From Candidatus Saccharimonadota bacterium (GTDB lineage Bacteria > Patescibacteriota > Gracilibacteria > BD1-5 > UBA2023), in contig JAXLZO010000001.1 of NCBI GenBank assembly GCA_046350815.1, forward strand, positions 510,001-542,000: a stretch of 32,000 nt of DNA, read 5' to 3'. The position numbers and the translations under genes are program-made. Positions 52-27,917 of this stretch are shown one piece after another. The notes under the pieces were generated by a model. That model did no database searches. It had not been told where the DNA came from and saw only the letters and a program-made list of their open reading frames with translations. The number at the start of each line of letters is the position of its first letter. The first letter of the stretch is position 1.

Positions 52-882
52 CTAGATCAATGAGATGCGATTTTGTGTTGCTATTTTATCGACTTCTTTG
101 GCGAGCATGATAATATTCTCCTCTTTTCATTTTTCATCTCATATGAGAGTGCATGCCTCACACTGATCTAGTTTTTGTACTGCGATGACACTGAGAGACG
201 TGAGTGCAGTACTGATAGCTATATATTCTGGAGCGTTTGGGTGAATTTTATCTCTCTGAAATTGGATAATTTTTTGGATTGCTTCGGAGATCTTTTGGAT
301 TTTTGGATTGGGGTGATTTCTGAGATGTTCTTTAAATCGATCTTTGAGTAGTTGCATCCCAAGACTGGAGATATTGCGAGCTTTTTCAGCTCTATTTGCC
401 AAGCTTTCCGCTTTTTTGATCACTGCTCATTTCTCGATGATCTTTAGTGCTTTATCTAGCACGGCAGTTATGCCTAGTACTTTTATCACGATCTCGATCG
501 TTCATTGCCCGAATTCATATGCATTTTCTGGGATATGTGTCAAACTCTTCCATAGATTGACTATCAAACTCTTCCAATCGATAGATTGGATCTTTTGTAT
601 AATTTCCTGGACTTTTATTTCACCCAGAGCAAGCGCGGCACCTACCTTGTCGATGATGGCATCTACCGAACCTTTAGCAAAATTTTGTGTAAATGTATTA
701 GAGGGATCGTATCACTCCTTTCCACCTTTTACTCCAATGTATGAGTACGCCTGTTTTCGACACTCCAAAACACACCGATCTATCCGATCTTGCAGAGATT
801 TTTCTTGATCTTGTGCAGACTCTGGAATCGGTTTTTGTTTTTTTGGAGCGAAATTAGTAGCACTATCACCAAATGATTCCAT
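52..882 (-). CDS. hypothetical protein (276 aa under code 25)
   Basis: One continuous frame from ATG 880-882 to TAG 52-54. It joins track ORF 139..423 to flanking pieces through 5 in-frame TGA (127, 139, 427, 502, 712). I walked every codon and found no TAA/TAG. No motif recognised. Confidence 0.5.
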
Positions 883-942
883 ACATTATCTGCAGATTTT
901 ATCTTGCTGATAATGTATCATATGTTTTTGCTGTTGGCAAAT

Positions 943-3588: not shown

Positions 3589-4998
3589 ATGCATCTTCAT
3601 ATTATCGGCATCGGTGGCATCGGCGTTTCTGCTCTTGCTCGCTTCTATCGTCGCTCGCTTGGTTGGCACGTGACTGGGAGTGATGCGAGTGATTTTTCCT
3701 TTCGTGAGCGTCTTGAGTCTGAATGAATAGATGTTTCCATCGGGCATTCAGCGGAAGTAATCACATCTGATACAGATCTGGTGATTTACTCTGAGGCAAT
3801 TATTACGAAGCCGGATCTGAGCTATGCTGAGAATCTTGAGGCAATACCAGAGCTCAAGCGAGCGAAGGAACTTGGAATCCGATCTCTCTCATATCCACAG
3901 GCTCTCTCAGAAATATTCGATGAGCGACAGGGGATTGCTGTGACAGGATCGCATGGGAAATCCACAACCACCGCTATGATTGGTGTCATGCTACAAAATA
4001 CTCCAAAAGCATCGAGTGTGATCGTCGGTACGCAAGTTCCACAGTTTGGTCAGTCCAATTTTTGGAATGCTGAAAGTTCATCCTATTTCACGATCGAAGC
4101 GTGTGAGTACAAGCGATCCTTTCTCGCATATCATCCATACATAACGGTTATCACAAATATTGATCTTGACCATCTTGATTATTACAAAAATCTTGATGAT
4201 TATTTCTCGGCATTTGATTCGATCATTCGTCAAACTCGAGGGTATGTGGTGATGAGATGGGATGATGAGCGAAGTAAAGAGCTCTACCATCGTATCTATG
4301 GATGAATAAATACAGCATGACTTCCGATCCCAGTGATGGTTGGTGAAGGGAAAATAGTTACGATTGTGAATGGTGAAATGAAGTTTGAAGATCTACCATC
4401 ATCGTGGAATCTCCAAGTGCCAGGTGATCATCTCGAACATGATGCGGAGCTTGCCTATGCGGTTGGTCGGATTCTTGGGCTTGATAGTATGATACTTATC
4501 TCAGGTCTCGAATCATATCAGGGTTCATGGAGACGTTCTGAGGTGGTGGGGGAGACAAAAAATCGAAACATACTAATGTCTGACTATGGGCATCATCCTG
4601 AAGAGATCAAACCAACCTTAAAAGCGATCAAACAAAAATATTCAGCTCGCAAGCTCTTTGTGGTATTTCAACCTCATCAATATTCACGTACGAGAGAATT
4701 ACTTTCAGAATTTGCAACATCGTTTGACGATGCGGATGAACTCATGATCCCGAATATTTATTTTTCACGTGATAAAGCGGAAGATGTGGAATATATGACG
4801 ATGGATCGACTCATAACTTTACTCCAGTCTCGTTACCCATGAGTTCAAAATGGTCAAGGACTGGAGGAGACAGCACGATATATCGAGTACTATGATCATT
4901 CTTTCCCAAATTCCTCCGTCATCCTCTTGCTGGGTGCAGGTGATGTAGATAGTTTGCGTGAAGATATTCCGGTGAAAATACTGACTATCGAGTGATAA
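3589..4998 (+). CDS. murC: UDP-N-acetylmuramate--L-alanine ligase
   Basis: ATG 3589. Starts MHLHIIGIGGIGVSALARFY (N-terminal Rossmann) and has the GSHGKSTT P-loop, DLDHLDYY and DYGHHPEEI. Track ORFs 3781..4305 and 4333..4842 plus flanks are all in frame 1, joined by 5 TGA (3724, 4303, 4318, 4840, 4993). Ends TGA-TAA at 4993-4998. Confidence 0.92.
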
Positions 4999-5011
4999 GA
5001 TATTTTTTAAT

Positions 5012-5060
5012 AAAAACACACAACCCATCTTTTGCAAGATGATTTCTGTGTGTTTTTTTG
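5012..5060 (+). terminator. intrinsic terminator after murC
   Basis: aaaacacaca...tgtgtgttttttt long hairpin with an inner catctt/aagatg stem, followed by a T-run. Confidence 0.6.
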
Positions 5061-5115
5061 CAATTTACACGTTTGTATACTATCCTAAAAGAGACTAATT
5101 TTTATCTTTTTCTCT

Positions 5116-7500
5116 ATGAGATTCTCACGAAAAATCTTTCGTCGATCATTCTTTGATCGTTTGATGAATACATCCCGACTCAAGAAACATACACCACTTC
5201 GAGTCAAGCTTCTCACAACATTCGCAATTATAAGCCTCCTCATCAGTGGTCTGACATTTGCTCTCGGATGAGCAAGTGCTGCTATTACATGGCCTTCTGC
5301 TCCTGCCGGAGAGGCTACTGGAGGAGCTATTATGAGTTATTTTAAAAATGCTTTTTGAGATGCAACCACTCAGACAGAAAAGGTGTGTACTAATAGCTGA
5401 GTTGTTCGATGATTTAAGACTGATGGAAATCCTATATGTGCAAGTCTTTCTGAACTCTCTGGTGGGGCATCTACGTCTACTACGCCGCCCACTACCACTA
5501 CTACGCTACCACCTACTACAACAACCACCACAACCACTACGACATCAACCCCAACCCCAACTATTACTTCATTTGGTGCAAGTTCAACATCGATTGCATC
5601 GGGTAGTCCTACTACTCTTTCGTGGAATGTTGCGAATGCCAACCCGAACGGCTGTACTCTCTATGCAGGTAGTACAGCACTCACACCTAACTATGATCCA
5701 GTCGGAAGTAGAACCGTGAGTCCAACATCCAATACTTCCTACAAGATCACCTGTACAGGATTTGGTGTATCAAGTGTCACATCGAGCGATGTAAACATTA
5801 CCGTCAATCAGTTGCCAACTCTTGATTTCAAAGTGAATGCCGGTACTTCCGTCAATACTTCTGCTGGTGATTCTGCCTCCGTATCCTACAACGGATCAGC
5901 AACACTTTCTTGGAATGCCACGAATGCTACATCGTGCACACCGACGAACTTTACACTCCCGAGTAACTATCTGACAACCAACAAATCTCTCACTCTCAAT
6001 AATCTCACCACATCCCAAACAACATATTCCCTCAAATGTGATGGTGCTGGAGGATCCATAACGAAAAGTGTTACGGTGAATGTGGCGAATCCAACCTCTC
6101 CGAATGTAACATTAACCGCGTCATCAACATCTGTATACAACGGAACCGGTGTTACTCTCTCTTGGAGTGTATCGAATGCTACATCATGTGCGGCAAGTAA
6201 CGGATGGACTGGAGATAAATCAACAAACGGTGGAGCCGAACCCGTAACTCCAGCCAACAGCACAACAACAACCTATACTCTCACATGTTACGGACAGTGA
6301 AACACTTCTCGGAGTGTGAGTGCGAGTGTGGAGGCAACGGCACCACCAGTATGTTTTACATATACAACAAATAACAACGAAGTAACCATTACTGGTTATA
6401 AGTGGAATACAACAAGAGGATGCTTAAGTAATACTACACCAACCGTAGAACTTGATATACCATCATCGATTGATGGAAAGACGGTGAAGTTTATTGGAAA
6501 TAATGCTTTCGTGCTCAACAACCTCACCTCAGTGACGATTCCGAACAGTGTGACGAGTATTGGAAATGATGCTTTCTATAGAAACCAACTCACCTCAGTC
6601 ACGATACCAAATAGTGTGACGAGTATTGGAAATGTTGCTTTCTCTTGGAACATGCTCACAGGTTCTCTTGTGATTCCGAATAGTGTGACGAGTATTGGAA
6701 ATGATGCTTTCAAGTACAACAAACTCACATCAGTGACGATTCCGAACAGTGTGACGAGTATTGGAAATGATGCTTTCTCGACCAACGAACTCACAGGTTC
6801 TCTTGTGATTCCGGACAGTGTGACGAGTATTGCGGGTGGTGCTTTCAGGTACAACAATCTCACATCCGTGACGATTCCAAACAGTGTGACGAGTATTGGA
6901 AATAATGCTTTCGAGGACAACGAACTCACCTCAGTGACCATTCCGGACAGTGTGACGAGTATTGGGTATGATGCTTTCCGGAGCAACAATCTCACATCCG
7001 TGACGATTCCAAATAGTGTGACGAGTATTGGGTATGGTGCTTTCCGGAGCAACAATCTCACATCCGTGACGATTCCAAACAGTGTGACGAGTATTGGAAA
7101 TAATGCTTTCGAGGACAACGAACTCACCTCAGTGACCATTCCGGACAGTGTGACGAGTATTGGGTCTAGTGCTTTCAAGTACAACAAACTCACATCAGTG
7201 ACGATTCCGGACAGTGTGACGCGTATTGAAGATCTGACTTTCTATAACAACCAACTTACTTCTGTGACCATTCCAAACAGTGTGACGTTTATTGGATGGG
7301 CTGCTTTCAAGTACAACAAACTCACATCAGTGACGCTTCTGGGTAGTAGGGTAAATATTTGGGATGAGACTTTCTGAGATCAAACCAATTCCGCCTGAAA
7401 CGGTACCGTCTATGGTTCGGCTTATATGCAGAGTTTTTATATTAATAATAACTCTAACCAATTCGACAGATCCAAACTAACAAACTACGTAGTCCAATAA
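5116..7500 (+). CDS. secreted/anchored surface protein: signal anchor, Thr/Pro linker, 3 Ig-like repeats, ~13 BspA-type leucine-rich repeats
   Basis: Frame 1 is open from ATG 5116 (in-frame TAA at 5086 upstream) to TAA 7498-7500, with 7 in-frame TGA.
- N-terminal basic region plus TM segment ([19 protein letters not shown]).
- [27 protein letters not shown] linker.
- Three repeats with the signature LSW-x-NA(T)xC...Y-L/I-x-C-x-G.
- Then 22-23-aa units [22 protein letters not shown], typical of BspA/TpLRR-type LRRs.
It unites track ORFs 5716..6300 and 6316..7377. Confidence 0.85.
5473..5565 (+). repeat. Thr/Pro-rich low-complexity coding tract (ACN/CCN runs)
   Basis: Direct reading gives act acg ccg ccc act acc act act acg cta cca cct act aca aca acc acc aca acc act acg aca tca acc cca acc cca act. 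This is the linker region of the 5116..7500 CDS. Confidence 0.8.
6451..7345 (+). repeat. in-frame tandem LRR-coding repeats (66-69 nt period), including a perfect 115-nt duplication
   Basis: The unit ...ctcac(c/a)tc(a/c)gtgac(g/c)attcc(g/a)(a/g)acagtgtgacgagtattgg... recurs about 13 times. Positions 6853-6967 and 7051-7165 are identical over 115 nt (offset 198 nt = three 22-aa units). Confidence 0.9.
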
Positions 7501-8432: not shown

Positions 8433-8972
8433 TTATTTTGGAAATTCATTTTTTCTTTGCTCCCTCATAGAGTGAGTTACCCGCAAAATAATTTTATCGC
8501 ACAGGGCTTGTGTATTTGAAGTAATTGGCATATCATCATTACACCATTCAATAAATGCTATTACAAGTCTATTTTGTTTCATAATTCCAATGTCACTGTT
8601 GTAGTCAAGAATATCAAGAATGATTGCTTGTTTGTCAACGGTAAAAGATCATGTGGTTAGCTCTATAGTCTTCTCTTGTATTTTGAGCCAGAGCTCTTTA
8701 GCTCAATCCTCACCTGCGTTACTCGGAAGAATATCCTGAAGATCGATAAGACTATCTTCAAGTTGTGGGGTGATGATTCAGGTGATAGTATGGAGTAATA
8801 CCTCGCGAACTATTTCTTCAAAGACATGGGTTTTGGTTTTTTGCTCTAGAATACTTCCTCAAAATGTGGGATATATATCATTTCATATATATCGAATGAG
8901 AGATGAATGAGATTGGAGGGACGATTCTACATTTTCTTCAATCGTATGTGCAATTGCTCAATGCATGGTCAT
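8433..8972 (-). CDS. hypothetical protein (~179 aa under code 25)
   Basis: Frame walked codon by codon from TAA 8433-8435 up to ATG 8970-8972 (alternative ATGs at 8966 and 9044). 7 in-frame TGA and no TAA/TAG. Not present in the standard-code track. No motif recognised. Confidence 0.5.
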
Positions 8973-9075
8973 ATATATAGGTGAATATCGATTAAGAATT
9001 CATATTACGGGTAAAAAAGAATATGTACAGCTCTTTTTTCCCATTTTTCAATATACTCTTGAGATAATTTTTTCT

Positions 9076-9729
9076 ATGAGAACAATCTTCATTGGTGATG
9101 TTCACGGCTGTCTTTTGGAGCTAAAAGATTTGATTGAAAAACTCTCGATAACTCCACAAGATCGGGTGATACTTCTGTGAGACCTTATCAATAAGTGACC
9201 TTATTCAGCTGAGACCGTACAATACGTCCATGAGAGTGGATTTGAATGTATTCGCGGAAATCATGATGAAGCATATAAGCAGTTTTTTAAACATTCGCAT
9301 TTGAGGCACTATTTTGGTCCGCTCAAATACGAAACTTATAAAGAGACGATGAGTCCAGAGGCACACCAGTGGTATATTCGTACTCCTATCTATATCGAGT
9401 CTGATGAATGGATTGCGGTCCATGCTGGACTTGAGCCGGGCAATGATCCTGCTGATACTGCAAAGAAAATTCTTATGAATATTCGTACATGGGATGAACT
9501 TGGAATAGACCTCGATGATCTTGATAATCCACCTTGGCACAGTCTCTATCGTGAATCGAAGAAGGTGATATACGGACATTGGGCACAACAATGACTTCAT
9601 GTTACTCTCAATACTGTTGGAATCGATACAGGATGCGCTTATGGATGAGAATTGACGGCATATATTTTGGAAACATGAGAAATGATCAGTGTAAAAGCAC
9701 GGGATGTGTACACACGAATCAAAAAATAA
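9076..9729 (+). CDS. metallophosphoesterase, ApaH/PrpE-like (bis(5'-nucleosyl)-tetraphosphatase or Ser/Thr phosphatase family)
   Basis: Begins MRTIFIGDVHGCLLELKDLIEKL (motif I GDxHG). Continues VILL-G-DLINK-G-PYS (motif II GDxxxxGP, both Gly encoded by TGA), GNHDE (motif III) and VHAG..GHW. Joins track ORFs 8965..9180 and 9301..9594. TAA at 9727-9729. Confidence 0.8.
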
Positions 9730-10510: not shown

Positions 10511-10530
10511 ATTTTCACATCACTCTATGA

Positions 10531-10560
10531 CCCGCTCTCAATGAGTGGGTTTTTCTTTCT
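10531..10560 (+). terminator. intrinsic terminator
   Basis: acccgctc / tcaat / gagtgggt 8-bp stem (one G-U) followed by ttttctttctc. Confidence 0.65.
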
Positions 10561-10648
10561 CTATTTCTCTAAAATAAATTGATTCTTTTTTGAAAAACAA
10601 AGGAAAATGCGTATATTCGATATTACCTTTGTTTTTTATTTCTCCACA

Positions 10649-12001
10649 ATGCTTCAAACAGTTCGTGGAATGCAGGATATCTTCGGTGAATACCAGAGAT
10701 ATTTCACATTTCTCAAGAAAGTAGCCCGTCACGAGTTTCGTAAAAATGGCTTTACTCGTATCTCGACACCCATTATTGAATTTGAGGAACTCATCACTCG
10801 ATCAGCTGGGAATTCTTCCGATATTGTCTCAAAGGAGCTCTATAGTTTTGATGATCGCAAAGAGCGACGCCTTGCGCTTAAGCCAGAGTCAACTGCCGGT
10901 GTTATGCGATCATACTTGACGAATATGCTCGATGAGTCTCAGCCAGTGTACCTCTACTATATTGAGCCGCATTTTCGCTATGATCGTCCACAAAAAGGTC
11001 GCTATCGTCAATTCCATCAGATTGGTGCTGAAATCATCGGTGAACAAGATCCGGTGCTCGATGCGAAGATGATGCATATTGGTTGTCGAATGCTTGATTC
11101 CATAGGACTTAAAGGCGAATATACACTCAAGATTAACTCTCTCGGCAATGAGAAAGAACGTGAAAAATACCTCCTTGATCTACGAGATTTCTTCGAGAAT
11201 AAGCGTCATATTCTCGATGAGACAGATCTTGCTCGTCTCGAGACAAATCCTCTCAGACTTCTCGATAGTAAGAATCCAGAAGTTCGTGGACTCCTCGAAT
11301 ATGCACCAAAAATGGAGAGCTACCTCAAGGGTGAATCCAAGGAATTCTATGCAAAAGTAAAGATGTATTTGGAAATTCTCGGTGTTCCATACGTTGAGGA
11401 TCATACACTCGTTCGAGGTCTTGATTACTATTCTCATACTGTATGGGAATGGGTCGATGGATCAGGCCGCACACAAGATGCATTCGGTGGTGGCGGACGA
11501 TATGATGGACTCTCAAAATCACTCGGACACAAGACTGCTGTTCCAGCAGTAGGATTTGGCATGGGATGTGAGCGCCTCATAGAGGCAATCATGGATCGTG
11601 GTGTGAAGCTTCGAAACAAAGATCGAACCCACCTCTATATCATCCAACTTGGTGAGGATGCAACAAAACTCGCACTTCCACTCAATATTGCAGCTCAAGA
11701 AGCATGACTTAATTCTCTCATTTCGCTTGGCACTCCATCCATCAAGACACAGATGAAGAAAGCAAATCGTCTGGGTGCAACTTACGTAGCTATTATCGGT
11801 ATAATGGAAGCAAGAAATGGCATCTGCCAGCTCAAGAATATGGAGCTTGGGACACAACGAGAGGTGAAGCTTGATGAGCTTGTCTCACTTCTCATCTCCG
11901 AGGTTGATAAGAAAGAGTTGGATTTCTATTCTCCAATGAAAGATTTTGTTATTGAAGAAGTGATTCATTCAGAAATTACAACATCCATAAATGAAAAATA
12001 G
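10649..12001 (+). CDS. hisS: histidine--tRNA ligase
   Basis: Start chosen at MLQTVRGMQDIF (canonical HisRS N-terminus). Class II motifs: LKPESTAGVMRSY, FHQIGAEIIG, GGGRYDGL. TGA at 11705 joins track ORFs 10607..11707 and 11753..12001 (anticodon-binding domain). TAG stop at 11999-12001. Confidence 0.93.
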
Positions 12002-12065: not shown

Positions 12066-14423
12066 CTAAGGAAGATCAACGTAGTTTGGAAGTTTCACTT
12101 TATCAAACTGTGTATCTGGGTTATTGATATAGGTATTTTTTACATATCAGGATGCTGGACCATAGACGGTACCATTTCAAGGGGAATTTGTTTGAACTCC
12201 AAATGCATCTAGTCAAATGTTTGTCACACTATTTGGAATCGTCACGGATGTAAGATTATTTTTGAAAAATGCTGCTCGACCAATATTTGTTACACTATTT
12301 GGAATCATCACTGATGTAAGCTGATTTGTTGAGAATGCACCAGTTCAAATATTTGTTACACTATTTGGGATATTGATCGAAGTGAGTTGATTCATGACAA
12401 ATGCTCAATTACCGAGACTTGTGACACTATTTGGAATGATAATAGAAGTAATATTATTATTATAAAATGCATTTTCTCCACCAATACTCGTTACGCTATT
12501 TGGAATCACAATATTATCACGCTGAGCACCACCATAACCAATAATAGTACTTGTATCTTGTGATCCATCTGGATTACGAGCGTAAATGAATGCATCACTA
12601 TTTGGAAGATTATTTCTATTAAATGCTCACATGCCAATATTTACAACACTATTTGATATTACCGCAGAGGTGATACTATTTGCGAAAAATGCAAGCTCTC
12701 AAATATTTGTAATGCCATTTGGAATATTAACGCATTTCAATCATTTAAGCGCAAAAGCCGCACTTCCAATATTTACAACATTTACACCGCCAATAGTTGG
12801 TGGAATAACTACTTGTTTTGGCCCACTACTCGAATATCATGTTATAGTCCCGCTATTACTATTGAAGGTAAAGTATGATTCATCAGTGAGAGTACTGCCA
12901 TTTTGGCAATTTCCTATCATATTAAAGCTTATTCCCAAATCATGCTGTGACCCAACATAAAAATCAGTAGATACTGCAGATCCGGTACAATTATAGGGAG
13001 TAATATCACCAAGAGATGATGTACTCGTACAATTAAGATTTGCATAAGGAGTCTCGAATGTAATACTTGCTGGCATATTCGTAGTACCAGCAAGAATAGT
13101 TTGCCATGCTGAAAAAGTAGAATTTGCAAACATACTATCAATCACATATCCATCAACGGTATCATCTACGAGTGATCCAGGAGTAACAGTTGTAATAGTA
13201 ACGCCAAATGTTGCATAGAGAGATATAGTTAGTGGTCCTATATATCCATAGTAGGTATTCCCCATAATACTATACTCTCCCATGGTAAGTATATGACTTA
13301 CCGGTCATCCTCCTCCACCTCCAGAATCACCACCCCCAGAACCTGATCCACTTCCCGTACCACTATTCATCCCCAAGAGTGCCTTCTCATCAAAGCTTCC
13401 ATCCTTCAGAGAAAGAAGAGATCAAGTAGAGATATCCATGGATACATATTCATCAGCTCACTGTGATCCTACCATGATATCAAGCGTACTTGCATCACTC
13501 AAAGAGATATCTCTACTTCCTGTACCTGTCACTCCATTCTGAAGAGGTTGCTTACTTCCCTTGGAGAGAAAGATTCAGAGTCTATCTCCTGCAGAGTAGG
13601 GATATCTGGAAGAGAGATCAATGTTGCTGCTGTCGAGAGCGTAAGCTCTTGGGAGAGCTTCACGAAGTGAAGCAGAAAGCATACCTCAAAAGTCTGAGAA
13701 GGTTTCAGGAAGAGACTGCGAAGCAGTCTCTTGTATTCCTTTCAATTGTCCTCCAAACTCATTCACTCCAACTTCTTGATTCCCCCTGTTCAGATTATCA
13801 TCTCCTCTTCCACTTCATCCACCATCCAATCATCCTTCATTCATTCCAATCTTCTCATTTTCATGAAACTTTCTTCCAGCAATCTCAATACTCCTCTCAA
13901 ACCTTGGATTCTCAAGGTATGCCATGAACTGAGCGCTATCGTAGTGTTGATTGACTCGATAGGTGTAAGGAGTTCCATCAAGAGGGTCATAGATCTTATC
14001 TGATCCATACCCAAGAGGATTCACAATACTCGTACTCATGAATCCTTGGTATCCAATGAATGTTCCACTCACACTAAGAGAGACACTATCTGCTATAGGT
14101 GTAGGAAGCTTTCGAAGCTGTGCACTGGTAATTCTCGCACTCTCTGACAATGTCTTAATATCACTAATTCTCTTTCCATCTCTTGCTACTGATGACTGAT
14201 GACTCATCACTACAAACCCTATCACGGATAGTATAGAGAGTATGGTGATGACTACTATGAGTTCGGTGAGGGTGAAGGCGGAACAAGAAGAAAAAACATT
14301 TATTGGTTTTCTCTTCTTAAAAGAAGAGAAAGAGAATTTGTTTGTAAATATTGATTTATTGGATGAGGACGATTTGAATTGGTACATAGTATAGTGTGGA
14401 GAAATGATTATGCTTCTCGTCAT
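12066..14423 (-). CDS. type IV pilin-like (prepilin N-terminus) protein with Gly/Ser linker and C-terminal BspA-type leucine-rich repeats
   Basis: I walked every codon from TAG 12066-12068 to 14450: 16 in-frame TGA and no TAA/TAG. This unites track ORFs 13830..14450 and 12837..13283.
- N-terminus ...[28 protein letters not shown] matches the class III signal / N-methylation motif (F+1, E+5, hydrophobic helix).
- Mid-region has [19 protein letters not shown].
- C-terminus has about 8 units of [20 protein letters not shown], several with the IG Gly encoded by TGA.
Start is uncertain: ATG 14423 or 14387, or TTG 14450. Confidence 0.8.
12183..12830 (-). repeat. LRR-coding repeats, inverted paralogs of those at 6451..7345
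   Basis: gtcacactatttggaat recurs at about 12223, 12290, 12355, 12421 and 12490. Segment 12223-12251 is the exact reverse complement of 6994-7022 (29 nt). Confidence 0.85.
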
Positions 14424-14826
14424 TTCATCACACTTTCTTAAGAAATACAAAAAATAGCGTCATGACAATGCTATTTTGAATAGAGAAATTTTGGATTTGT
14501 GTTGTGATATAGATTTGGAGGGGAGAATATAGAAAAGGTAGACTCATGATCCATCACACCTATGTGATTCGCTGTATTTCCTACGATCAAGCTTCAGTAG
14601 TCCAGCAAGTTCCCATTGTTGGGATAAGTTGGGAATCTGTTATTTATTTATTTGTAACTTTTCAGGACAACGACAGATACAATCTAACTTTCATTGCACG
14701 TAACCTTGCTTTCCCCGTCAATGAGGAGGACCAATGGGTATCTTCTAAATAAGATTTTGCCGATTAAGCTATCTTTTCGCTTTGACAACCACTCTGAAAT
14801 CAAGAAAATGGTTTCTTATAAAAACT

Positions 14827-15156: not shown

Positions 15157-15178
15157 CAAATTTTGCTATTTATTTTTG
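15149..15178 (+). terminator. intrinsic terminator after the HxlR gene
   Basis: aaatagcaaa/tttgctattt palindrome overlapping the stop codon, followed by atttttg. Confidence 0.6.
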
Positions 15179-15255
15179 TAGAAATCATCGTTCTTGCTTG
15201 CTATCATGTGAAAAAAGAATATTTTCTACTTATAATTTCGTTTTTTATTCTGTCT

Positions 15256-16725
15256 ATGGCTCTCACTCCTCGATCCCAAGATTATTCTCAGTGGTATCTC
15301 GATGTTGCAAAAGCAGCAGATTTATTTGAGTATTCTCCAACGCCCGGATGTATTACTTTTCTTCCAAAATCAGTTGCTATATGGGATCGTATTCGATCAA
15401 CCATGCAGGCAAAATTTGAGAAGCTCGGTGTTCAAAATTTATACCTTCCAATGCTTATTCCGATGAGTTTCTTTGAAAGAGAAAAAGAACACGTTGAGGG
15501 TTTTGCACCAGAGCTTGCTGTAGTAACTGTTGGTGGATGAAAAACACTTGAGGATCCACTTGCCATCCGACCGACATCGGAACTTCTCTTTTGTGATTTT
15601 TTTAAAAATCGCCTCCAATCATATCGTGATCTTCCACTTCTCTACAATCAGTGGGTAAGTGTGCTTCGGTGGGAAAAACGTACACGACCTTTCTTGCGAA
15701 CCGCGGAGTTTCATTGGCAGGAAGGGCATACACTTCATGAAACACGTGAAGATGCAAATAATTTTGCTCTCTCGATTCATTATGGTGTTTATATTGAGAC
15801 AATTCGTGAACTAATGGCAATTGATGGTATAGCAGGTCGAAAGTCGAGTAGTGAAAAATTTGCATGAGCGGATACGACCTATACATTTGAGCCGATGATG
15901 TCGAATGGATGGGCACTTCAGATCTGTACCAGTCATCTTCTTGGTCAGGGATTCATGGAGGGTTTTGGTGTGAATTTTCAAAATCGAGATGGTGGAATTT
16001 CTCATCCATACTATACCTCTTGGGGACTCTCTACTCGATCGATTGGAGGGATTATTTCATCCCATTCAGATGACAAAGGACTGATTATTCCACCTCGAAT
16101 GAGTGAATATCTAGCTATGATCCTTCCAGTTTATGGAAAAGATAACAAGGAGATTGTGAATACCTATGCCCGATCTCTCGCAGAGGAAATGACGGGCGGA
16201 ACAACAGAGGTACCAGTACAAGGAGAATATTTTCGAGCTGTTATCGGTCCAAGGGGAAAAGTACTCCTCGATCTGCGTGATGCTCGACTCGGTGAAAAGA
16301 TCAATGATTTTGAACTCTCAGGCTATCCTGTGCGTATCGAGTGTGGTGAGCGAGATCTCCAATCTGGAAAGTGCGTCGTCGCCTCTCGTATTTCCGGAGA
16401 AAAAGTGGTGATTGAGAGATCAGAGTTAACTACCACGGTGGATCATATGCACACTCAAGGACAAGAGATGTTGTTCGAGGCGAGCAGTAAACGTCTGAGA
16501 GAGAATACGGTCGCATGTGAGACACTCGAAGATGTTGGTCGAGCTATTGAAGCTGGAAAATTCGCACTCTATGAGTGGGATGGTAATCCTCAGATGGAGA
16601 TAGATATTAAGGAGCGGTTCAAAGCAACAACAAGATGTATTCCATTCGAAGGACAATTTACGGACGATCTTCTCACATTGAAAAACCCAGCGAATGTTCG
16701 AGTTGTTATTGCGAGAAATTTCTAA
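15256..16725 (+). CDS. proS: proline--tRNA ligase (archaeal/eukaryote-like short form without INS editing domain)
   Basis: Begins MALTPRSQDYSQWYLDVAKAADL. Contains RPTSE, WVSVLRWEKRTRPFLRTAEFHWQEGH, SHLLGQ and TSWGLSTRSIGGII. Track ORFs 15163..15540, 15661..15867 and 15895..16725 are all in frame 1 and joined by TGA at 15538 and 15865. Confidence 0.93.
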
Positions 16726-19812: not shown

Positions 19813-19888
19813 GCGGGTGTAGCTCAATGGCTAGAGTCCCTGCCTTCCAAGCAGGCTGTTGTGGGTTCGACTCCCATCGCCCGCTCCA
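19813..19888 (+). tRNA. tRNA-Gly (anticodon UCC), CCA encoded
   Basis: Cloverleaf folded by hand. Acceptor GCGGGTG/CGCCCGC, D arm GCTC..GAGT, anticodon stem CCTGC/GCAGG with loop cuUCCaa, T arm GTGGG-TTCGACT-CCCAT, then T-CCA. Confidence 0.85.
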
Positions 19889-19930
19889 TTTTTTTCTGGA
19901 GCATTTGCAATTCTCAAGATCGTATCGAAT

Positions 19931-20007
19931 GGGCGTATAGCTCAGTTGGTTAGAGCACTTCTCTGATAAGGAAGGGGTCCCTGGTTCGAGTCCAGGTACG
20001 CCCACCA
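19931..20007 (+). tRNA. tRNA-Ile (anticodon GAU), CCA encoded
   Basis: Acceptor GGGCGTA/TACGCCC, D arm GCTC-AGTTGGTTA-GAGC, anticodon loop cuGAUaa, T arm CCTGG-TTCGAGT-CCAGG. Confidence 0.88.
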
Positions 20008-20030
20008 TTCATTTCTGCATACGATATAGT

Positions 20031-20107
20031 CGGAGACTGGCGCAATTGGCTAGCGCACGTGCTTTGGGAGCACGGGGTTGCGAGTTCGAGTCTCGCGTCT
20101 CCGACCA
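20031..20107 (+). tRNA. tRNA-Pro (anticodon UGG), CCA encoded
   Basis: Acceptor CGGAGAC/GTCTCCG, D arm GCGC-AATTGGCTA-GCGC, anticodon stem CGTGC/GCACG with loop uuUGGga, T arm GCGAG-TTCGAGT-CTCGC. Confidence 0.88.
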
Positions 20108-20119
20108 TTTTATTGTTTT

Positions 20120-20194
20120 GGCGCTATCGTCTAGTGGTTAGGACAGCGGGTTTTCATCCCGTAAACCGGAGTTCGATTCTCCGTAGCGCTACCA
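20120..20194 (+). tRNA. tRNA-Glu (anticodon UUC), CCA encoded
   Basis: Acceptor GGCGCTA/TAGCGCT (G1-U72), GTCTAGTGGTTAGGAC D arm typical of tRNA-Glu, anticodon loop uuUUCau, T arm CGGAG-TTCGATT-CTCCG. Confidence 0.85.
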
Positions 20195-20209
20195 TCTTTG
20201 GTTCTATTT

Positions 20210-20284
20210 GGCGGGGTAGCTCAGTGGTAGAGCAGAGGCCTGAAAAGCCTTGTGTCGGTGGTCCGATTCCACTCCTCGCCACCA
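20210..20284 (+). tRNA. tRNA-Phe (anticodon GAA), CCA encoded
   Basis: Acceptor GGCGGGG/CCTCGCC, D arm GCTC-AGTGGTA-GAGC, anticodon stem GAGGC/GCCTT with loop cuGAAaa, T arm GGTGG-TCCGATT-CCACT. Confidence 0.85.
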
Positions 20285-20326: not shown

Positions 20327-20389
20327 ACATTGGTGATTTAGATGAATATCTATACAATTTGATTTATTCAATCGTATTTTCCGACTATT

Positions 20390-22873
20390 ATGCAAAAAGA
20401 GGCTCAATCTCGTATAAAAATCAATAAGCTCCTCGAGAAATCTGGATGGAGTTTTCTCGATAAAGAGAAGCAAAAAGCTAATATTCAAGTGGAAGCATGA
20501 GTTAAGCTCGATCATCTATGAGATGATTTTGAGCATGCTCCTCGAGGTGCAATTGATTATCTCCTCCTCGATAGTCGTGGTTTTCCTATTTGTGTACTCG
20601 AGGCAAAGAAAGAATCCATCCATCCACTTTCAGCAAAAGAACAAGCTCGAGACTATGCGATCTCGAAAAATGCTCGATTTATTATCCTCTCAAATGGTAA
20701 CTCACACTATCTCTGGGATAGAGAAAATGGGAATCCTGAACTCATCACAGAATATCCAACTCAGGCATCTCTCGAACATAGATCGACCTATAATCCAGAT
20801 GTTTCCTCGCTCGCTGATATCCAGATAAATGCTGAGTATCTTGCTCCAGCAAAATATCTCAGACCCTATCAAGTTTGAGCTATACAAGCCATCCAAGCTT
20901 GGGCAAAAGAATGAAAGACACGTTATCTTCTCGAGATGGCTACGGGAACAGGAAAGACAACCACCTCAGCTGCAATATGTAAATTGTTTCTTCAGACAGG
21001 AAATGCGAAAAGAATACTCTTTCTTGTGGATCGAATAGAACTTGAAGATCAGGCGAAAAAGGCTTTTGCAGAAGAAATATTCAAATGAGTATATTTTGTC
21101 GATACAATCAAGTCAGGTGAGTGGCAAAAATGCCAAATTGTTGTCTCTACTATCCAGACCCTTATGGCTGGTGATAGATATAAAGAGCTTTTTTCTCCGA
21201 CAGATTTTGAGCTCGTGATATCCGATGAGGCACATAGATCGATATGAGGCAATGCTCGTGCAGTATTCGAGTATTTTATCGGATACAAACTTGGACTCAC
21301 AGCCACACCAAAGGATTATCTCAAAGGAATCGATGAAAAAGCGGGGATGTCAGAAAATCCGAAAGCACTTGAAATCAGAAACCTCAGAGATACATATAAA
21401 ACCTTTGGTTGTGAAGCATGAGAGCCAACATTTCGCTATGATCTTTCGGCCGGAGTGCAAGATGGCTTTCTCATCAATCCGTATGTTATCGATGCTCGTA
21501 CTGATGTGACGACTGAGCTTCTCTCTCTAGAATGATTTACTCTTGAAGTCGAGAACGATGACGGTGAATCGAGTGAGGAATCATTTGGAATACGTGACTT
21601 TGAAAAAAGATTTTTCAATGAAAAAACAAATCAGATATTTGCTGAAACAATCATCCAAAATGGACTTCTTGATCCTCTCACAGGTGAATTCGGCAAGATG
21701 CTTGTATTTGCTGTAAGTCAGTCCCATGCAGCCAAGATTGTCAATCTCCTCAATGCCATTGCTATGAAAAAATGGCCAGGGAAGTATGATTCTGATTTTG
21801 CGATGCAGGTGACGAGTAGTGTTATGAGATCACAGGATTTCACCAAGGATTTCACCAATAATCGTCTCTCTGGACGTTCGCACTTTGCAGATAGTACTCA
21901 TCCAGATTATGAGACTGGGAAGACTCGAATATGTGTGACCGTAGGCATGATGACGACTGGATATGACTGTCCTGACCTCCTCGGGGTAGTGCTTCTTCGT
22001 CCAGTATTTTCACCAGCGGATTTCGTCCAGATGAAGGGGCGAGGTACTAGAAAACATGTATTTCTCTATCAGGAAACGGGAGAAAAGGTAGAAAAAGATA
22101 AATTTCTCCTCCTTGATTTCTTCGGGAATTGTGAGTACTTCGAGAAGGATTTTGACTACAATAAAAAGCTCGATCTTCCTGCAATCTCGCAGAAAAAAGA
22201 TGGTCCGATAGTCATCGTAGATCCTCCAATCAATCCTGATGATGTAGATGCGAGAGTAGACGATAAAGTCCGTTCAGAGACAATTATCCAAGTCTGAAAA
22301 GAGTGAATGCGTATTGATCAGGAACTCTATCGCAAACCAAAACACGAACAGTTCGAGTATGTGTTACAAAATAGTGAGACTATAAGAGAGATAAATGAAA
22401 CTTCTGGGATCGAGTGAGTCGAAGAATTTCTGAAGAGTGAAGTATTCAATAAGCCAAATGAGTACTGGAATCCTCAAAAACTCCGAGAATCCTATGAGAA
22501 AGTCTATAATACTGGTAGGCGTATCACTCTCCGAGAAATGATCTCTAAAGCATTTGGATTTCTCCGAGGATTCGAGTCTCGCGATGAACGACTTGACACA
22601 GAGTGGCAGAAGTTCCTGATTACTGAGCGACCGAATGTCGAAACTGGTGAACAACTTCGCAAGCTCAAGATCATATTCGAGACATATTTAGCTGATGAGA
22701 GGTTCCGTTCTATCATTGATTCAGGTAGTATTGCCGGACTCGATAGCTATAGCTCTCTCGTTAACATGAACGATATTAGGCTCGTCTGAGGTCGTCCTAC
22801 TGTTGATGCTGTACGCAATTATTCGAGTGAATATCTCACGAGTGCGATGAGAGAATTTAGTTTCTCAAAATAA
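20390..22873 (+). CDS. hsdR: Type I restriction enzyme R subunit (HsdR; PD-(D/E)xK nuclease + SF2 helicase + EcoEI-R-like C-terminal region)
   Basis: Frame 2 walked codon by codon from ATG 20390 to TAA 22871-22873: 12 in-frame TGA and no TAA/TAG.
- N-terminus MQKEAQSRIKINKLLEKSGW.
- Nuclease core D-YLLLD...VLEAKKE.
- Helicase motifs: I EMATGTGKT, II ISDEAHRS, III GLTATP, VI QMKGRGTR.
Only two pieces (21698..22297 and 22538..22789) appear in the standard-code track. Confidence 0.9.
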
Positions 22874-22885
22874 CAATAACTTTAT

Positions 22886-25351
22886 ATGCTCAACTCCACT
22901 ACCAAAAATCGTATCAACTCCTGTCGAGACATGCTCGTGGGTAAACTCCCCGATCCTAAAAGCCAGATCGACCAGATCACGAACGCCCTCGTCTATAAGT
23001 TCATGGATGATCAGGATCGTATGAGTCGAGAGCTTGGGTATGATGCGAGCTTTTTTATCTGAGACTATGAACAATATGCATGGTCTAAGCTCTTTGATAA
23101 TAGACTTACCAATCAAGAGAAAGCGAATCTCTACAGTGAGTGACTCGATAAATTATCAGTAGCTGATCATCTTCCTGAGCTTTTCAAGCAAATATTCAAA
23201 AATGCGAGACTCCCATTCAAGGATCCAAGTACTATTACCATGTTCCTTGCTGAAATCAATGGGTTTAGCTATCATCACTCAGAAGAACTTGGTAATGCAT
23301 TTGAGTACCTATTATCTGTCATGGGAAGCCAATGAGATACAGGTTCATTTCGCACACCTCGTCATATCATTGAGTTCCTCGTCGATGTTGTTGATCCAAA
23401 AAGATGAGAAACAATCTATGACCCTGCCTGTGGAACAGCATGATTTCTTATTGAGGCTTTTAATCATATCAAATCAGCTTGAGATCTCAGCGTTTCAGAT
23501 ACGGCAACGCTCTGAAAAAATATTTCCTGAGTTGATATCGACCCTGGTATGGCGAAGATTGCCCGAGTGAACCTCTACCTTCATGGATTCAAAACACCGA
23601 ATATTGATGAAAATGACACTCTTTCAAATGAAAAACTCTGGTGAATGAAACGCGATGTGATACTGGCTAATCCGCCCTTTATGACACCAAAAGGAGGGAT
23701 AAGGCCTCATGAAAAATTCAGCTCGAAAACAAGTAAATCTGAGGTTCTTTTTACTGACTATATTATTGAACATTTGAAGCTCCATGGTCGCGCTGGTATC
23801 ATCGTGCCTGAGGGTATTATGTTCAATGGATCAAATGCTTATAAAGATCTCAGAAAAAAACTCGTAGATGGATGATACCTCTGGGCGGTGGCATCACTTC
23901 CAAGTGGGGTATTCAATCCCTATGCAGGAGTGAAGACCTCTATACTCTTTCTCGATCGAGAACGAGCAAAAGCCAATGATTCTATCCTCTTCGTGAAGAT
24001 ATCTGCAGATGGATATGATCTCGGAGCTCAACGTCGTCCAATTGAGAAAAATGATCTCCCAAAAGCTCTCGAAGTCCTGAATCAGTATAAAGAAAATCCT
24101 AATATCGAACTAGAAAATGAGCCGCTTTCTCACCTCGTAGAAAAATCAAAAATTGCAGAAAATGGAGAATATAATCTCAGTGGAGATAGATACATTCTTG
24201 GTCCAGAAAATCCCGCTTCTTCATTTGACCTAATAAAATTAGATGAACTTGTAGAAATTCAAAATGGATATGCTTTTCAGAGTGAAAAATACTCTGAAAG
24301 TTGATATCAAGTCATACGAATCACTAATGTTCAAAAAGGATTTATTGATCCAAAAGATCCAAAATTTTATCCGGATAATGAAGTGAAAAACTTAACTGAC
24401 TTTATTCTATCAAAGTGAGATTTATTAATGTCTCTGACTTGAAATGTTTGAAGAGTGTGAGTACTCAAAATAGAGCATCTTCCTGCAGTATTGAACCAAC
24501 GGGTTGCAAAGTTAAAAATTAAAAACCCCACTATTATAAATAAGAATTATCTTTTTCATTTATTAAATTCAGATAAATTTGAAAATGATGCTATGGCACT
24601 TTCAGGTGGAGTTGCTCAAAAGAATTTATGAACTACCAGTTTAAAAGAGTATCAAATCCCTCTCCCTCCTCTCGAAATCCAAGAACAGATCGTGTCTGAG
24701 CTCGATGGATATCAGCGGATCATCGATGGAGCTCGAGCGGTCGTCGAGAATTATAAGCCGACGATCAAGATAGATCCGGAGTGGGAGATGGTGGAGTTGG
24801 GAGAGGTGTGTGATGTTTCTTCTGGAGGAACCCCTCCGCGTGATACTGAAGAATATTGGAAGGATGGAACTATACCCTGGGTATGATCGTCTGTTTGTAA
24901 GAACCAATTTGTGTTCGCATCTGAGGAATATATTACAGAGGTATGATTGAAGAAGTCAGCCGCTAAATTATTTAAACCATACACCACTCTCATGGCATTA
25001 GTATGAGCAACAATCTGAAAAACTGGTTTATTATTATTTCCATGCACTACAAATCAGAATATCGCCTGATTATATCCTAAAGATGATACTATTCTCTCAC
25101 CAAAGTTTCTATTCTTTATTTCACAATCTCTTTACGATGAATTTATGAGATTATGAGATTGAAAATTTAAGATGGCAAATTTAGGTTTTGTGAGATGATT
25201 AAAAATCCCTCTCCCTCCTCTCGAAATACAGAAAACTATCGTCGAGCGGATCGAGGAAGAACAGAGGCTCGTCGATGCGAATCGGAGGCTCATAGAGATC
25301 TATGAAGGGAAGATATGAGAGAAGATGGATGAAGTCTGGGGGATAAAATAA
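22886..25351 (+). CDS. fused Type I R-M methyltransferase-specificity protein (HsdM-HsdS in one 821-aa polypeptide)
   Basis: Frame 2 is open from ATG 22886 to TAA 25349-25351, with 25 in-frame TGA and no TAA/TAG (codon-walked).
- HsdM part: LVGKLPDPKSQIDQITNALVYKFMDD, FRTPRHIIEFLV, YDPACGTA-G-FL (motif I), NPPF (motif IV), YNLSGDRY.
- HsdS part follows with no stop or start: TRD1, T-G-NV-G-RV-G-V..LNQRVAKL, central IPLPPLEIQEQIV, TRD2, V-G-ATI-G-KTG..TNQNIA-G-L, distal IPLPPLEIQKTIV..RLIEIYE. Confidence 0.85.
24654..25227 (+). repeat. 25-nt perfect direct repeat pair inside the HsdS part (24654-24678 and 25203-25227)
   Basis: aaatccctctccctcctctcgaaat occurs twice, 549 nt apart. It encodes the two conserved IPLPPLEI helices that flank TRD2. 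Confidence 0.9.
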
Positions 25352-26856: not shown

Positions 26857-27069
26857 ATGACTCTTCCTGAAATCCTTCTCATTGTTCAGATTGTTGCACT
26901 CTCAGTCATATCGATGCTTGTTGCATTGATTCTCTTTCGTATATACGAAATCATTGCACGCATAGAAGTTACTTCGCGTAATCTTAACACGATCAATCGA
27001 ATTCTCCTGAAAACTCAGAATTTTTCGATCTCAGATCTTCTCATAGATATCAAGCATTTTTTTCGTTAA
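26857..27069 (+). CDS. hypothetical small membrane protein (70 aa)
   Basis: Single N-terminal TM helix (ILLIVQIVALSVISMLVALILF). Has its own perfect-palindrome terminator downstream. Confidence 0.5.
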   Translation: MTLPEILLIVQIVALSVISMLVALILFRIYEIIARIEVTSRNLNTINRILLKTQNFSISDLLIDIKHFFR

Positions 27070-27081
27070 TAAAGTTTTGCT

Positions 27082-27115
27082 CTAAAAACACCATTGATAT
27101 CAATGGTGTTTTTAG
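27082..27115 (+). terminator. intrinsic terminator
   Basis: ctaaaaacaccattgata/tcaatggtgtttttag, a perfect palindrome. Confidence 0.7.
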
Positions 27116-27254
27116 ATTTGCTATACAAAAGTATAAAATATATCTTCACAATATTTGCGTTTTTCAAATTTATATGCTACGCTTATGAACGAAGCCACAG
27201 TTTTGTGAGCATCATGATCGTATATTGTGTTTCTTTATATCTTCTCTTTGTGTT

Positions 27255-27917
27255 ATGAATACCAATACCAAGCGATTTATCGCTCTCTCTACCGTAGCAG
27301 CATTTGCTGCATTCGGTGCATCATCAGCATTTGCCTCTCAGGTCGGTACCGGTACGGTTACCGGATCCGGTGGTCTTACCACCGCGATCAACTGGAATGA
27401 TGTCATTCCAGGTTCTGCCTCTGGTACCATCAATGGTATCATTGTAAAAGCAAAAGTACGCCCTATCCTCAATATGGCTATCTCTGCAGATACTATTGAT
27501 CTTGGATACCTCAATCCAACTACCTACACATCAGGATCAGTCACTATGGAAGTAGGAACCAACGCATCAGCTGGTGCTTCTGTCACTGCTAAATCTCTCA
27601 ACGGAGGTATGCTCTCTGCCTCTGGTGATATCATCAACGATCTCACTGCTGATGGTATTGCCGAGAGCTACAAGTGGACGACCACTCTTTCTGGAGCATC
27701 CGACAGCGTTGCAGCTGGATTCACTCAGACTGCTAACCTCAGTAGTGAGATCAACAGTACCGTCACTGCCTACACTCTCTACACGACCAACAAACCATCT
27801 AAGACTTCTGTTGGTATCGATGACTTTACTTTTACTGCATCCGCAAAGGTTGCTGAAGATACTCCTGCAACCAGCTACAGTGACAAGGTTATCGTGACTG
27901 TTGCGGCAAATTTCTAA
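27255..27917 (+). CDS. secreted Ser/Thr/Ala/Gly-rich protein (220 aa), function unknown
   Basis: ATG 27255. Signal peptide MNTNTKRFIALSTVAAFAAFGASSAFA-SQ. Beta-rich, low-charge sequence ending ...YSDKVIVTVAANF. 20 Gly codons, none TGA. The overlapping ORFs 27567..27929(-) and 27574..27897(+) are off-frame shadows. Confidence 0.7.
   Translation: MNTNTKRFIALSTVAAFAAFGASSAFASQVGTGTVTGSGGLTTAINWNDVIPGSASGTINGIIVKAKVRPILNMAISADTIDLGYLNPTTYTSGSVTMEVGTNASAGASVTAKSLNGGMLSASGDIINDLTADGIAESYKWTTTLSGASDSVAAGFTQTANLSSEINSTVTAYTLYTTNKPSKTSVGIDDFTFTASAKVAEDTPATSYSDKVIVTVAANF

Follow-up and report, generated by a model that had tools for sequence, protein, structure and literature searches.

A probable modular type IV prepilin bearing a BspA-type leucine-rich repeat module in a Gracilibacteria genome

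RESULTS

One gene joins a prepilin-type N-terminus to a leucine-rich repeat module

We analyzed a 32-kb stretch of DNA (the window: positions 510,001 to 542,000 of contig JAXLZO010000001.1, assembly GCA_046350815.1) from the 1.28-Mb genome of a bacterium placed in the Gracilibacteria. On its minus strand lies a long gene whose product begins like a type IV prepilin and ends in a leucine-rich repeat (LRR) module of the BspA type. An initial annotation, made from the sequence letters, had described a pilin-like N-terminus, a beta-rich region, a linker and BspA-type LRRs at 12066-14423, and all of these parts are indeed present on the minus strand. Its description of the remainder as an LRR body of about 700 amino acids (aa) was overstated: the LRR_5 module accounts for about 240 aa (residues 513-755, approximately), and the rest is made up of other domains. 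The features are listed below. Residue 1 is the ATG at 14423 throughout, and domain borders were drawn from family alignments.

12066..14387, minus: coding sequence of the putative modular prepilin, read with code 25; 773 aa plus stop; matches the public protein P0254
14277..14387, minus: leader, residues 13-49 (1-49 if counted from 14423); rich in Ser, Lys and Asn, with a basic KKRK, ending in SSCSA; predicted to be disordered
14208..14276, minus: core of the class III signal and alpha1-N, residues 50-72, Phe+1, TLT, Glu+5 (FTLTELIVV...)
13881..14276, minus: predicted pilin fold, residues 50-181, with a conserved DPxDGxPYTY motif inside
13650..13880, minus: variable Gly-rich insert, residues 182-258, found only in the closest paralogs (P0001, P0002 and P0003)
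13365..13649, minus: conserved extension of the carrier, residues 259-353 (AYALDSS...); no Pfam match and low AlphaFold confidence
13302..13364, minus: Gly/Ser linker, residues 354-374; one Gly is encoded by TGA
12888..13301, minus: beta-rich domain, residues 375-512; no Pfam match
12159..12887, minus: BspA-type LRR module, residues 513-755; an N-cap and eight LRR_5 units of about 22 residues
12069..12158, minus: C-terminal cap, residues 756-785; also present in the Sec-type LRR paralog of the window

The reading frame requires TGA as glycine

Under the standard bacterial code (table 11) the gene is an open reading frame (ORF) of just 206 aa (13830..14450). The minus-strand frame is open from 14639 to 12066 only when TGA is a sense codon; from the ATG at 14423 to its TAA/TAG stop (12066-12068) it contains 16 TGAs. 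Several of these fall on an invariant glycine of the LRR unit: the Gly of the 'IG' pair is TGA in three of five canonical units, and the paralog at 5116..7500 has GGN at that position. In the genes for histidyl-tRNA synthetase (HisRS, 10511..12001) and prolyl-tRNA synthetase (ProRS, 15157..16725), Pfam domains flank in-frame TGAs on both sides. Because TGA occupies invariant LRR glycines and is spanned by the HisRS and ProRS domains, we conclude that it encodes Gly (code 25) and not Trp. Table 11 breaks up essentially all long genes of the window, and code 25, which Gracilibacteria and Absconditabacteria use (PMC11452946), leaves them whole.

Upstream of the prepilin motif there are only two in-frame ATGs, at 14423 (giving a 785-aa product with a 49-aa leader) and at 14387 (giving a 37-aa leader). 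The public gene call starts at 14387. Its product, P0254 (773 aa, encoded on an NCBI contig of 1,283,673 bp), was translated with Gly for each TGA and from Met13 onward does not differ from the window product. Scanning for promoters and terminators around the gene returned background levels only.

The N-terminus combines a prepilin-type signal with a predicted pilin fold

The N-terminal sequence fits the prepilin rule, with a small residue (Ala) at -1, Phe at +1, Glu at +5 and then about 20 hydrophobic residues. When all six frames were scanned, this motif, which follows SSCSA, proved unique in the window. The initial annotation had looked to signal predictors and structure prediction for a check, and both bore it out. 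NCBIfam TIGR02532 scored 23.1 bits against a cut-off of 16.3, and Pfam N_methyl (PF07963) scored 22.0 bits against 21.2, a marginal pass; the predicted structure is described below. The Ala at -1 had been singled out as a departure from the usual Gly. The residue is there, and it is the norm of this lineage rather than an oddity: among 99 family members with the motif, 65 have Ala at position -1, 22 have Gly and 12 ostensibly have Trp, the last because TGA was miscalled under code 4, so these residues too are Gly. Position +1 is Phe in all 99. An alignment of 98 relatives shows no exception to Glu+5, and conservation of 90% or more at Phe+1, Thr+2 and Leu+3. In pilin biology, Glu+5 serves filament assembly, not anchoring.

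Structures were predicted from the paralog P0001 and later from the table-11 fragment of the window gene. With an alignment of 11 sequences, AlphaFold modeled the pilin module at a predicted local distance difference test score (pLDDT) of only 25-40; with 98 sequences, residues 50-175 reached 90-97. In this model a 50-residue helix, alpha1 (residues 52-101), runs from the predicted cleavage site and packs on a four-stranded sheet (strands 114-118, 121-128, 154-158 and 164-167), and the leader is disordered. We also compared a profile of the module with all sequences in the PDB. Every one of its 21 matches was a type IV pilin or pseudopilin, the best being Geobacter PilA-N (5e-8), Streptococcus sanguinis PilE1 (1.3e-6, 87 columns) and GspG (1.4e-5), with MshA, PilA, PilE and PpdD among the others. 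The similarity lies mainly within alpha1, and in most of the matches the family's Phe+1 aligns with mature residue 1. We conclude that the N-terminus, as judged from its sequence and model, is a prepilin-type class III signal together with a complete predicted pilin fold, which is more than a bare motif.

The C-terminal part is a predicted LRR solenoid

The LRR module matched LRR_5 (PF13306) with 125 bits against a cut-off of 27.7 (E=2e-36, about 240 aa covered), and AlphaFold predicted it as a solenoid with pLDDT 75-93. Matches of this model in the PDB included 4fs7, 4gt6, 4cp6 and 6mlx (E values from 2e-7 to 1e-4); the best are surface LRR proteins of Bacteroides and Faecalibacterium, pneumococcal PcpA and TpLRR of Treponema pallidum. 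Where they have been characterized, BspA-type LRRs are protein-binding adhesin modules, and by analogy with these family members the module may bind a ligand. We tried the HupY/LrrG adhesin family (NF047961) as an assignment and rejected it, as the score was 81.4 bits against a cut-off of 1250 and only the LRR region is similar.

The beta-rich domain that precedes the LRRs is common to the paralogs of LRR_5 type; those of LRR_8 type have an FN3-like segment instead. An RGD tripeptide occurs in the Gly-rich insert (13800-13808, minus; residues 206-208) and may well be there by chance.

The carrier recurs with different leaders and cargo

The initial annotation had proposed a look for other pilins elsewhere in the genome, and they exist: a search with the non-LRR part of the protein found at least five paralogs, pilin genes with related carriers, in the same 1.28-Mb genome. 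Over residues ~80-760 the paralog P0001 (MFO0763724.1, 747 aa) has 100% identity with the window protein; it departs from it in its leader, which is short (MQIFSSVKKHSA), and in its last two residues. That same leader is found on P0008 (671 aa), in which an FN3-like domain and then LRR_8 repeats come after the same carrier. These sequence comparisons suggest that P0001 and the window gene arose by a recent duplication or gene conversion with a swap of leaders. P0002 (865 aa) has Gly at -1; it matches the window protein at 100% identity over residues ~200-440, and in the LRRs its identity drops to about 50%. P0003, in the same genome, has 774 aa, and P0016 is a more distant relative. NCBI names the paralogs either 'leucine-rich repeat protein' or 'prepilin-type N-terminal cleavage/methylation domain-containing protein'. 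We conclude from the sequences that among the pilin genes of this genome the carriers are identical or nearly so, and that leaders and C-terminal cargo vary.

Perhaps recombination between paralogs switches the cargo on a constant filament subunit, in the manner of pilE/pilS antigenic variation or of phage tail-fiber cassettes? We offer this reading tentatively and think it rather unlikely to hold. If it did, such switching could set or vary the host cells that an episymbiont can grasp.

Beyond this genome, a search with a carrier-only profile found at least 1,564 proteins, typically 350-550 aa long; among the matches listed, nearly all that are named belong to Gracilibacteria. At E<=1e-10, an exhaustive phmmer search with the pilin core found representatives of 412 clusters (50% identity), which consistently match residues ~47-173 at their own N-termini. 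Many database relatives are fragments of 130-210 aa. The cargo of carrier relatives includes LamG-like (PF13385), fibrinogen-C (PF00147), LRR_5, LRR_8, FN3 plus LRR_8, DUF285 and DUF1566 domains, and within the phylum the LamG-like jelly-roll seems to be the most frequent cargo. In five proteins from other metagenomes (P0017, P0082, P0112, P0129 and P0132) the carrier is joined to a fibrinogen-like 'YCDxxxxGGGW' domain, a call made by PF00147 in four of them and in P0017 by the YCD…W sequence motif only; relatives with the LamG-like jelly-roll are many more. The size of the window protein, which had been taken as unusual, is not: family lengths and an earlier description of Gracilibacteria pilins (Sieber 2019, PMC6851277) make 400-800 aa normal.

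Relatives of the gene lie beside pilus motor genes

A scan of reference genomes gave 80 loci, almost all labeled Gracilibacteria, Peribacteria or Patescibacteria. To these we added the loci L001 and L002 and called the genes of all 82 under the appropriate code. Among these genes are 127 members of the pilin family, spread over 77 of the loci. The family's commonest non-pilin neighbors are T2SSE PilT-like ATPases (13 genes in 12 loci) and T2SSF/PilC proteins (6 loci). Two pilin-LRR genes stand in tandem in L001, the closest relative available, and 3.6 kb upstream of them is a gene for a PilT-like ATPase.

Among the 114 complete genes with the pilin motif, the mature product is shorter than 200 aa in 15 and at least 400 aa in 77. 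Three cargo-less pilins of about 200 aa are found directly between or beside PilT and PilC (L047, 721-2470; L050, 15218-18430; L069, 9846-13004). Such short pilins are plausible candidates for the major, shaft-forming pilins, and their position beside motor genes agrees with the large ones acting as accessory or tip pilins. In a closed Gracilibacteria genome PilB, PilC, PilD and PilT are encoded and PilQ is not, and there are 15 large GspG-like proteins with a mean length of 528 aa (PMC6851277). Type IV pili are expressed in Gracilibacteria (PMC11452946).

A TrwB/VirD4-like (DUF87) ATPase of about 830 aa is found near pilin genes in 6 of the 82 loci. In L001 its gene (4751-7261) separates that of the PilT-like ATPase from the pilin-LRR pair and adjoins one for a cNMP-binding protein; another copy is present, for example, in L024 (16701-19178).

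Other genes of the window

A surface protein with a conventional export signal is another product of the window:

5116..7500, plus: Sec-type LRR surface protein, 794 aa; ordinary signal peptide, poly-Thr/Pro linker and the same C-terminal cap as the pilin

A pattern count gives it 12 LRR_5 units, and its Ser/Thr-rich repeats look Ig-like by eye and have no Pfam match. Over the LRRs and C-cap it is 49% identical to the pilin. Since both proteins have this LRR and C-cap, the same type of cargo is carried on a Sec-type and on a pilin carrier. We considered a recent gene conversion between the two genes and rejected it, as they share only stretches of 45-106 nucleotides at 71-89% identity.

An Rfam scan of the window found five tRNAs and nothing else:

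19813-20284, plus: tRNA cluster, Gly-TCC, Ile-GAT, Pro-TGG, Glu-TTC and Phe-GAA

The tRNA-Gly has the anticodon TCC, not UCA; the decoder of TGA is therefore encoded elsewhere.

Further genes include those for ExoIII, aspartate carbamoyltransferase (ATCase), MurC, HisRS, ProRS, tyrosyl-tRNA synthetase (TyrRS), HtpX, FolC and a putative type I restriction-modification system. The last is a pair recognized by eye in translation, an HsdR-like helicase/nuclease with a DEAH motif (20342-22873, plus) and a fusion of HsdM (NPPF motif) with two HsdS-like target-recognition repeats (22880-25351, plus). ORFs at 26988-27917 (plus), 52-885 (minus) and 8433-9200 (minus) have no Pfam match; among such ORFs, one product of 220 aa is rich in Ser, Thr and Gly and has a clear signal peptide (MNTNTKRFIALSTVAAFAAFGASSAFA…).

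DISCUSSION

An accessory or tip pilin is the probable identity of the gene product

The best-supported reading of these data, and in our judgment a probable one, is that we have here the gene for a modular type IV prepilin, one that acts as an accessory or tip pilin and presents an LRR adhesin. Prepilin peptidase would cut the 37-aa leader after Ala49, leaving a mature protein that starts with Phe, has Glu at +5 and opens with the hydrophobic alpha1-N helix. This helix would serve at first as a membrane anchor and would then enter the core of a type IV filament, built by a PilB/PilC/PilT-type machine mainly from a short pilin of about 200 aa. The constant carrier would comprise the pilin fold of about 130 aa and the conserved extension of about 95 aa, and the flexible Gly/Ser linker would project the beta-rich domain and the eight-unit LRR solenoid off the filament. 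We would place the protein most likely at the tip, or at low frequency along the filament. Its LRR surface may bind a ligand, plausibly on the bacterium on which this candidate phyla radiation (CPR) organism lives. The earlier suggestion of a giant accessory or tip pilin with an LRR adhesin is supported in part (by the signal, the predicted fold, the modular layout and the PilT and PilC genes beside relatives) and has lost its claim to be unusual.

Several observations weigh against an accessory or tip pilin. The N_methyl match clears its cut-off by 0.8 bits. Prepilin leaders are short and basic, typically of 5-30 aa; the leader here, 37 or 49 aa, is three to four times longer than the family median of 13 aa, and long leaders (30-45 aa, rich in Ser, Lys and Asn) are also found in P0002, P0012, P0014 and one gene of L001. 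Foldseek gave no significant match of the pilin-module model in the PDB (best E=0.42), and the assignment of the pilin fold therefore comes from topology and sequence profile. The 32-kb window has no gene for pilus machinery or prepilin peptidase, and a search with a PilT+PilC concatenate aimed at the 1.28-Mb genome was swamped by double-PilT fusions of other phyla. A regular expression for the GxGDxK peptidase motif, run over the window, 986 neighbor genes and all six frames of the 82 loci, found none within 10 kb of the related pilins. Finally, at least five paralogs competing for the tip, where alone an appendage of about 700 aa seems to fit, are hard to fit to the reading.

Might the protein instead be an adhesin of the cell body that is anchored like a pilin and never polymerized? 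In this rival, the chief one, the class III signal and alpha1-N would only insert and hold the protein in the cytoplasmic membrane of the monoderm-like CPR cell, with or without cleavage by PilD, and the linker, beta-rich domain and LRRs would protrude through the wall independently of any filament. This would suit a pilin gene that adjoins no pilus gene, a family in which cargo-bearing pilins outnumber short ones (77 of 114 with a mature length of at least 400 aa), and a genome with at least five paralogs, which are many for one filament tip; moreover, the same LRR cargo works without a pilin carrier on the Sec-type protein of the window. However, a mere anchor would not be expected to conserve an entire globular pilin fold over hundreds of clusters or to keep the assembly residue, Glu+5, invariant. 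Family members are also interleaved with PilT and PilC in L050 and L069, and modular pilins do enter pili in S. sanguinis (PMC8179133). We regard a never-polymerized adhesin as unlikely, if the most serious of the alternatives. We give still less credence to a minor pseudopilin, either of a Com-type DNA-uptake pilus or of a pseudopilus like that of a type II secretion system (T2SS), with an LRR that captures a substrate or DNA receptor. The N-terminus is weakly similar to the GspG and ComGC models, NCBI labels several relatives 'type II secretion system protein (GspG)', CPR pili have been proposed to take up DNA (PMC8080830, PMC11452946), and the TrwB/VirD4-like ATPase recurs near pilin genes at six loci. 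Yet only the generic alpha1 helix is similar, with scores far under the cut-offs (16.1 vs 88.85 for GspG; 15.2 vs 75 for ComGC), the linked neighbors are PilT-type retraction ATPases and no T2SS set, and BspA-type LRRs that have been characterized bind proteins as adhesin modules.

There is, lastly, the prospect of an artifact or pseudogene, that is, a 206-aa pilin followed by untranslated sequence that we read through real stops. The standard bacterial code does yield a 206-aa ORF, and many database relatives are fragments of 130-210 aa. Nevertheless, we consider this explanation already refuted: TGA lies on invariant LRR glycines, HisRS and ProRS also require it as a sense codon, the product of read-through matches LRR_5 with 125 bits and is predicted to fold with confidence, the deposited protein is translated with TGA as Gly, and code 25 is known in Gracilibacteria (PMC11452946).

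If the gene product is indeed an accessory or tip pilin, its interest lies in how CPR episymbionts recognize and hold their hosts. Xie et al. in 2022 are said to have found type IV pili essential for host binding in Saccharibacteria. A pilin with an LRR solenoid would be a concrete candidate for a recognition element in Gracilibacteria, and interchangeable cargo on a single carrier hints at where host specificity could be encoded. The modular-pilin concept, the pair of domains and the protein sequence are all already public; what this work contributes is a well-delimited candidate and a description of its family, not a new principle.

Comparison with known systems

With type IVa major pilins, GspG and ComGC, the protein shares Phe+1, Glu+5 and the hydrophobic alpha1-N, and as in GspG and ComGC-type pilins alpha1-C runs on as ...ARDGKRISD.... 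Unlike them, it is four to five times larger and has no evident disulfide-bonded D-region. Membership of the GspG (TIGR01710) and ComGC (NF040999) families was rejected on the scores given above, as the N-terminal helix alone matches in each. With BspA-type LRR proteins (Tannerella BspA, PcpA, TpLRR and those of Bacteroides) it shares the LRR_5 repeat of about 22 residues and the predicted solenoid. Those proteins, judging by their names and by the Sec-type paralog of the window, have ordinary export or anchor signals, whereas here the LRR is placed on a pilin. To our knowledge, no LRR-bearing pilin has been characterized.

The GspG-like proteins of Sieber 2019 (mBio, PMC6851277) are from the same phylum and resemble ours, by description, as a set of many large pilin-type proteins. 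The metagenome-assembled genome is a different one here, and the cargo domains were left undissected in that study.

The closest parallel is with the modular pilins of Raynaud et al. (2021, PNAS; PMC8179133). The characterized examples come from S. sanguinis, where PilB is a pilin joined to a vWA domain and PilC a pilin joined to a lectin; both are incorporated into and presented by type IV pili, and they mediate adhesion (PMC8179133). Our initial annotation had treated the architecture as unusual, and here it must give way, as a prepilin with a BspA-type LRR region (IPR026906) is already catalogued in that work: Dataset S1 lists the combination IPR012902-IPR026906 in 18 proteins with a single copy and in a further 6 with two copies, IPR026906 is grouped with modules of 'no clear function', and the representatives include CPR phyla, Gracilibacteria among them (PMC8179133). 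Like the modular pilins of that study, the window protein has an IPR012902 class III signal, a small pilin module, a linker and a bulky C-terminal binding module, and the parts that correspond to the definition (a linker joins the N-terminal pilin module to a further domain with no specific tie to pilus biology) are the pilin module at residues 50-181, the Gly/Ser linker at 354-374 and the LRR_5 module at 513-755. It differs from them in its larger carrier (the pilin fold, a conserved extension of about 95 aa and the beta-rich domain), in its 37-aa leader with Ala at -1, and in belonging to a multi-copy family within one genome that sets divergent cargo on identical carriers.

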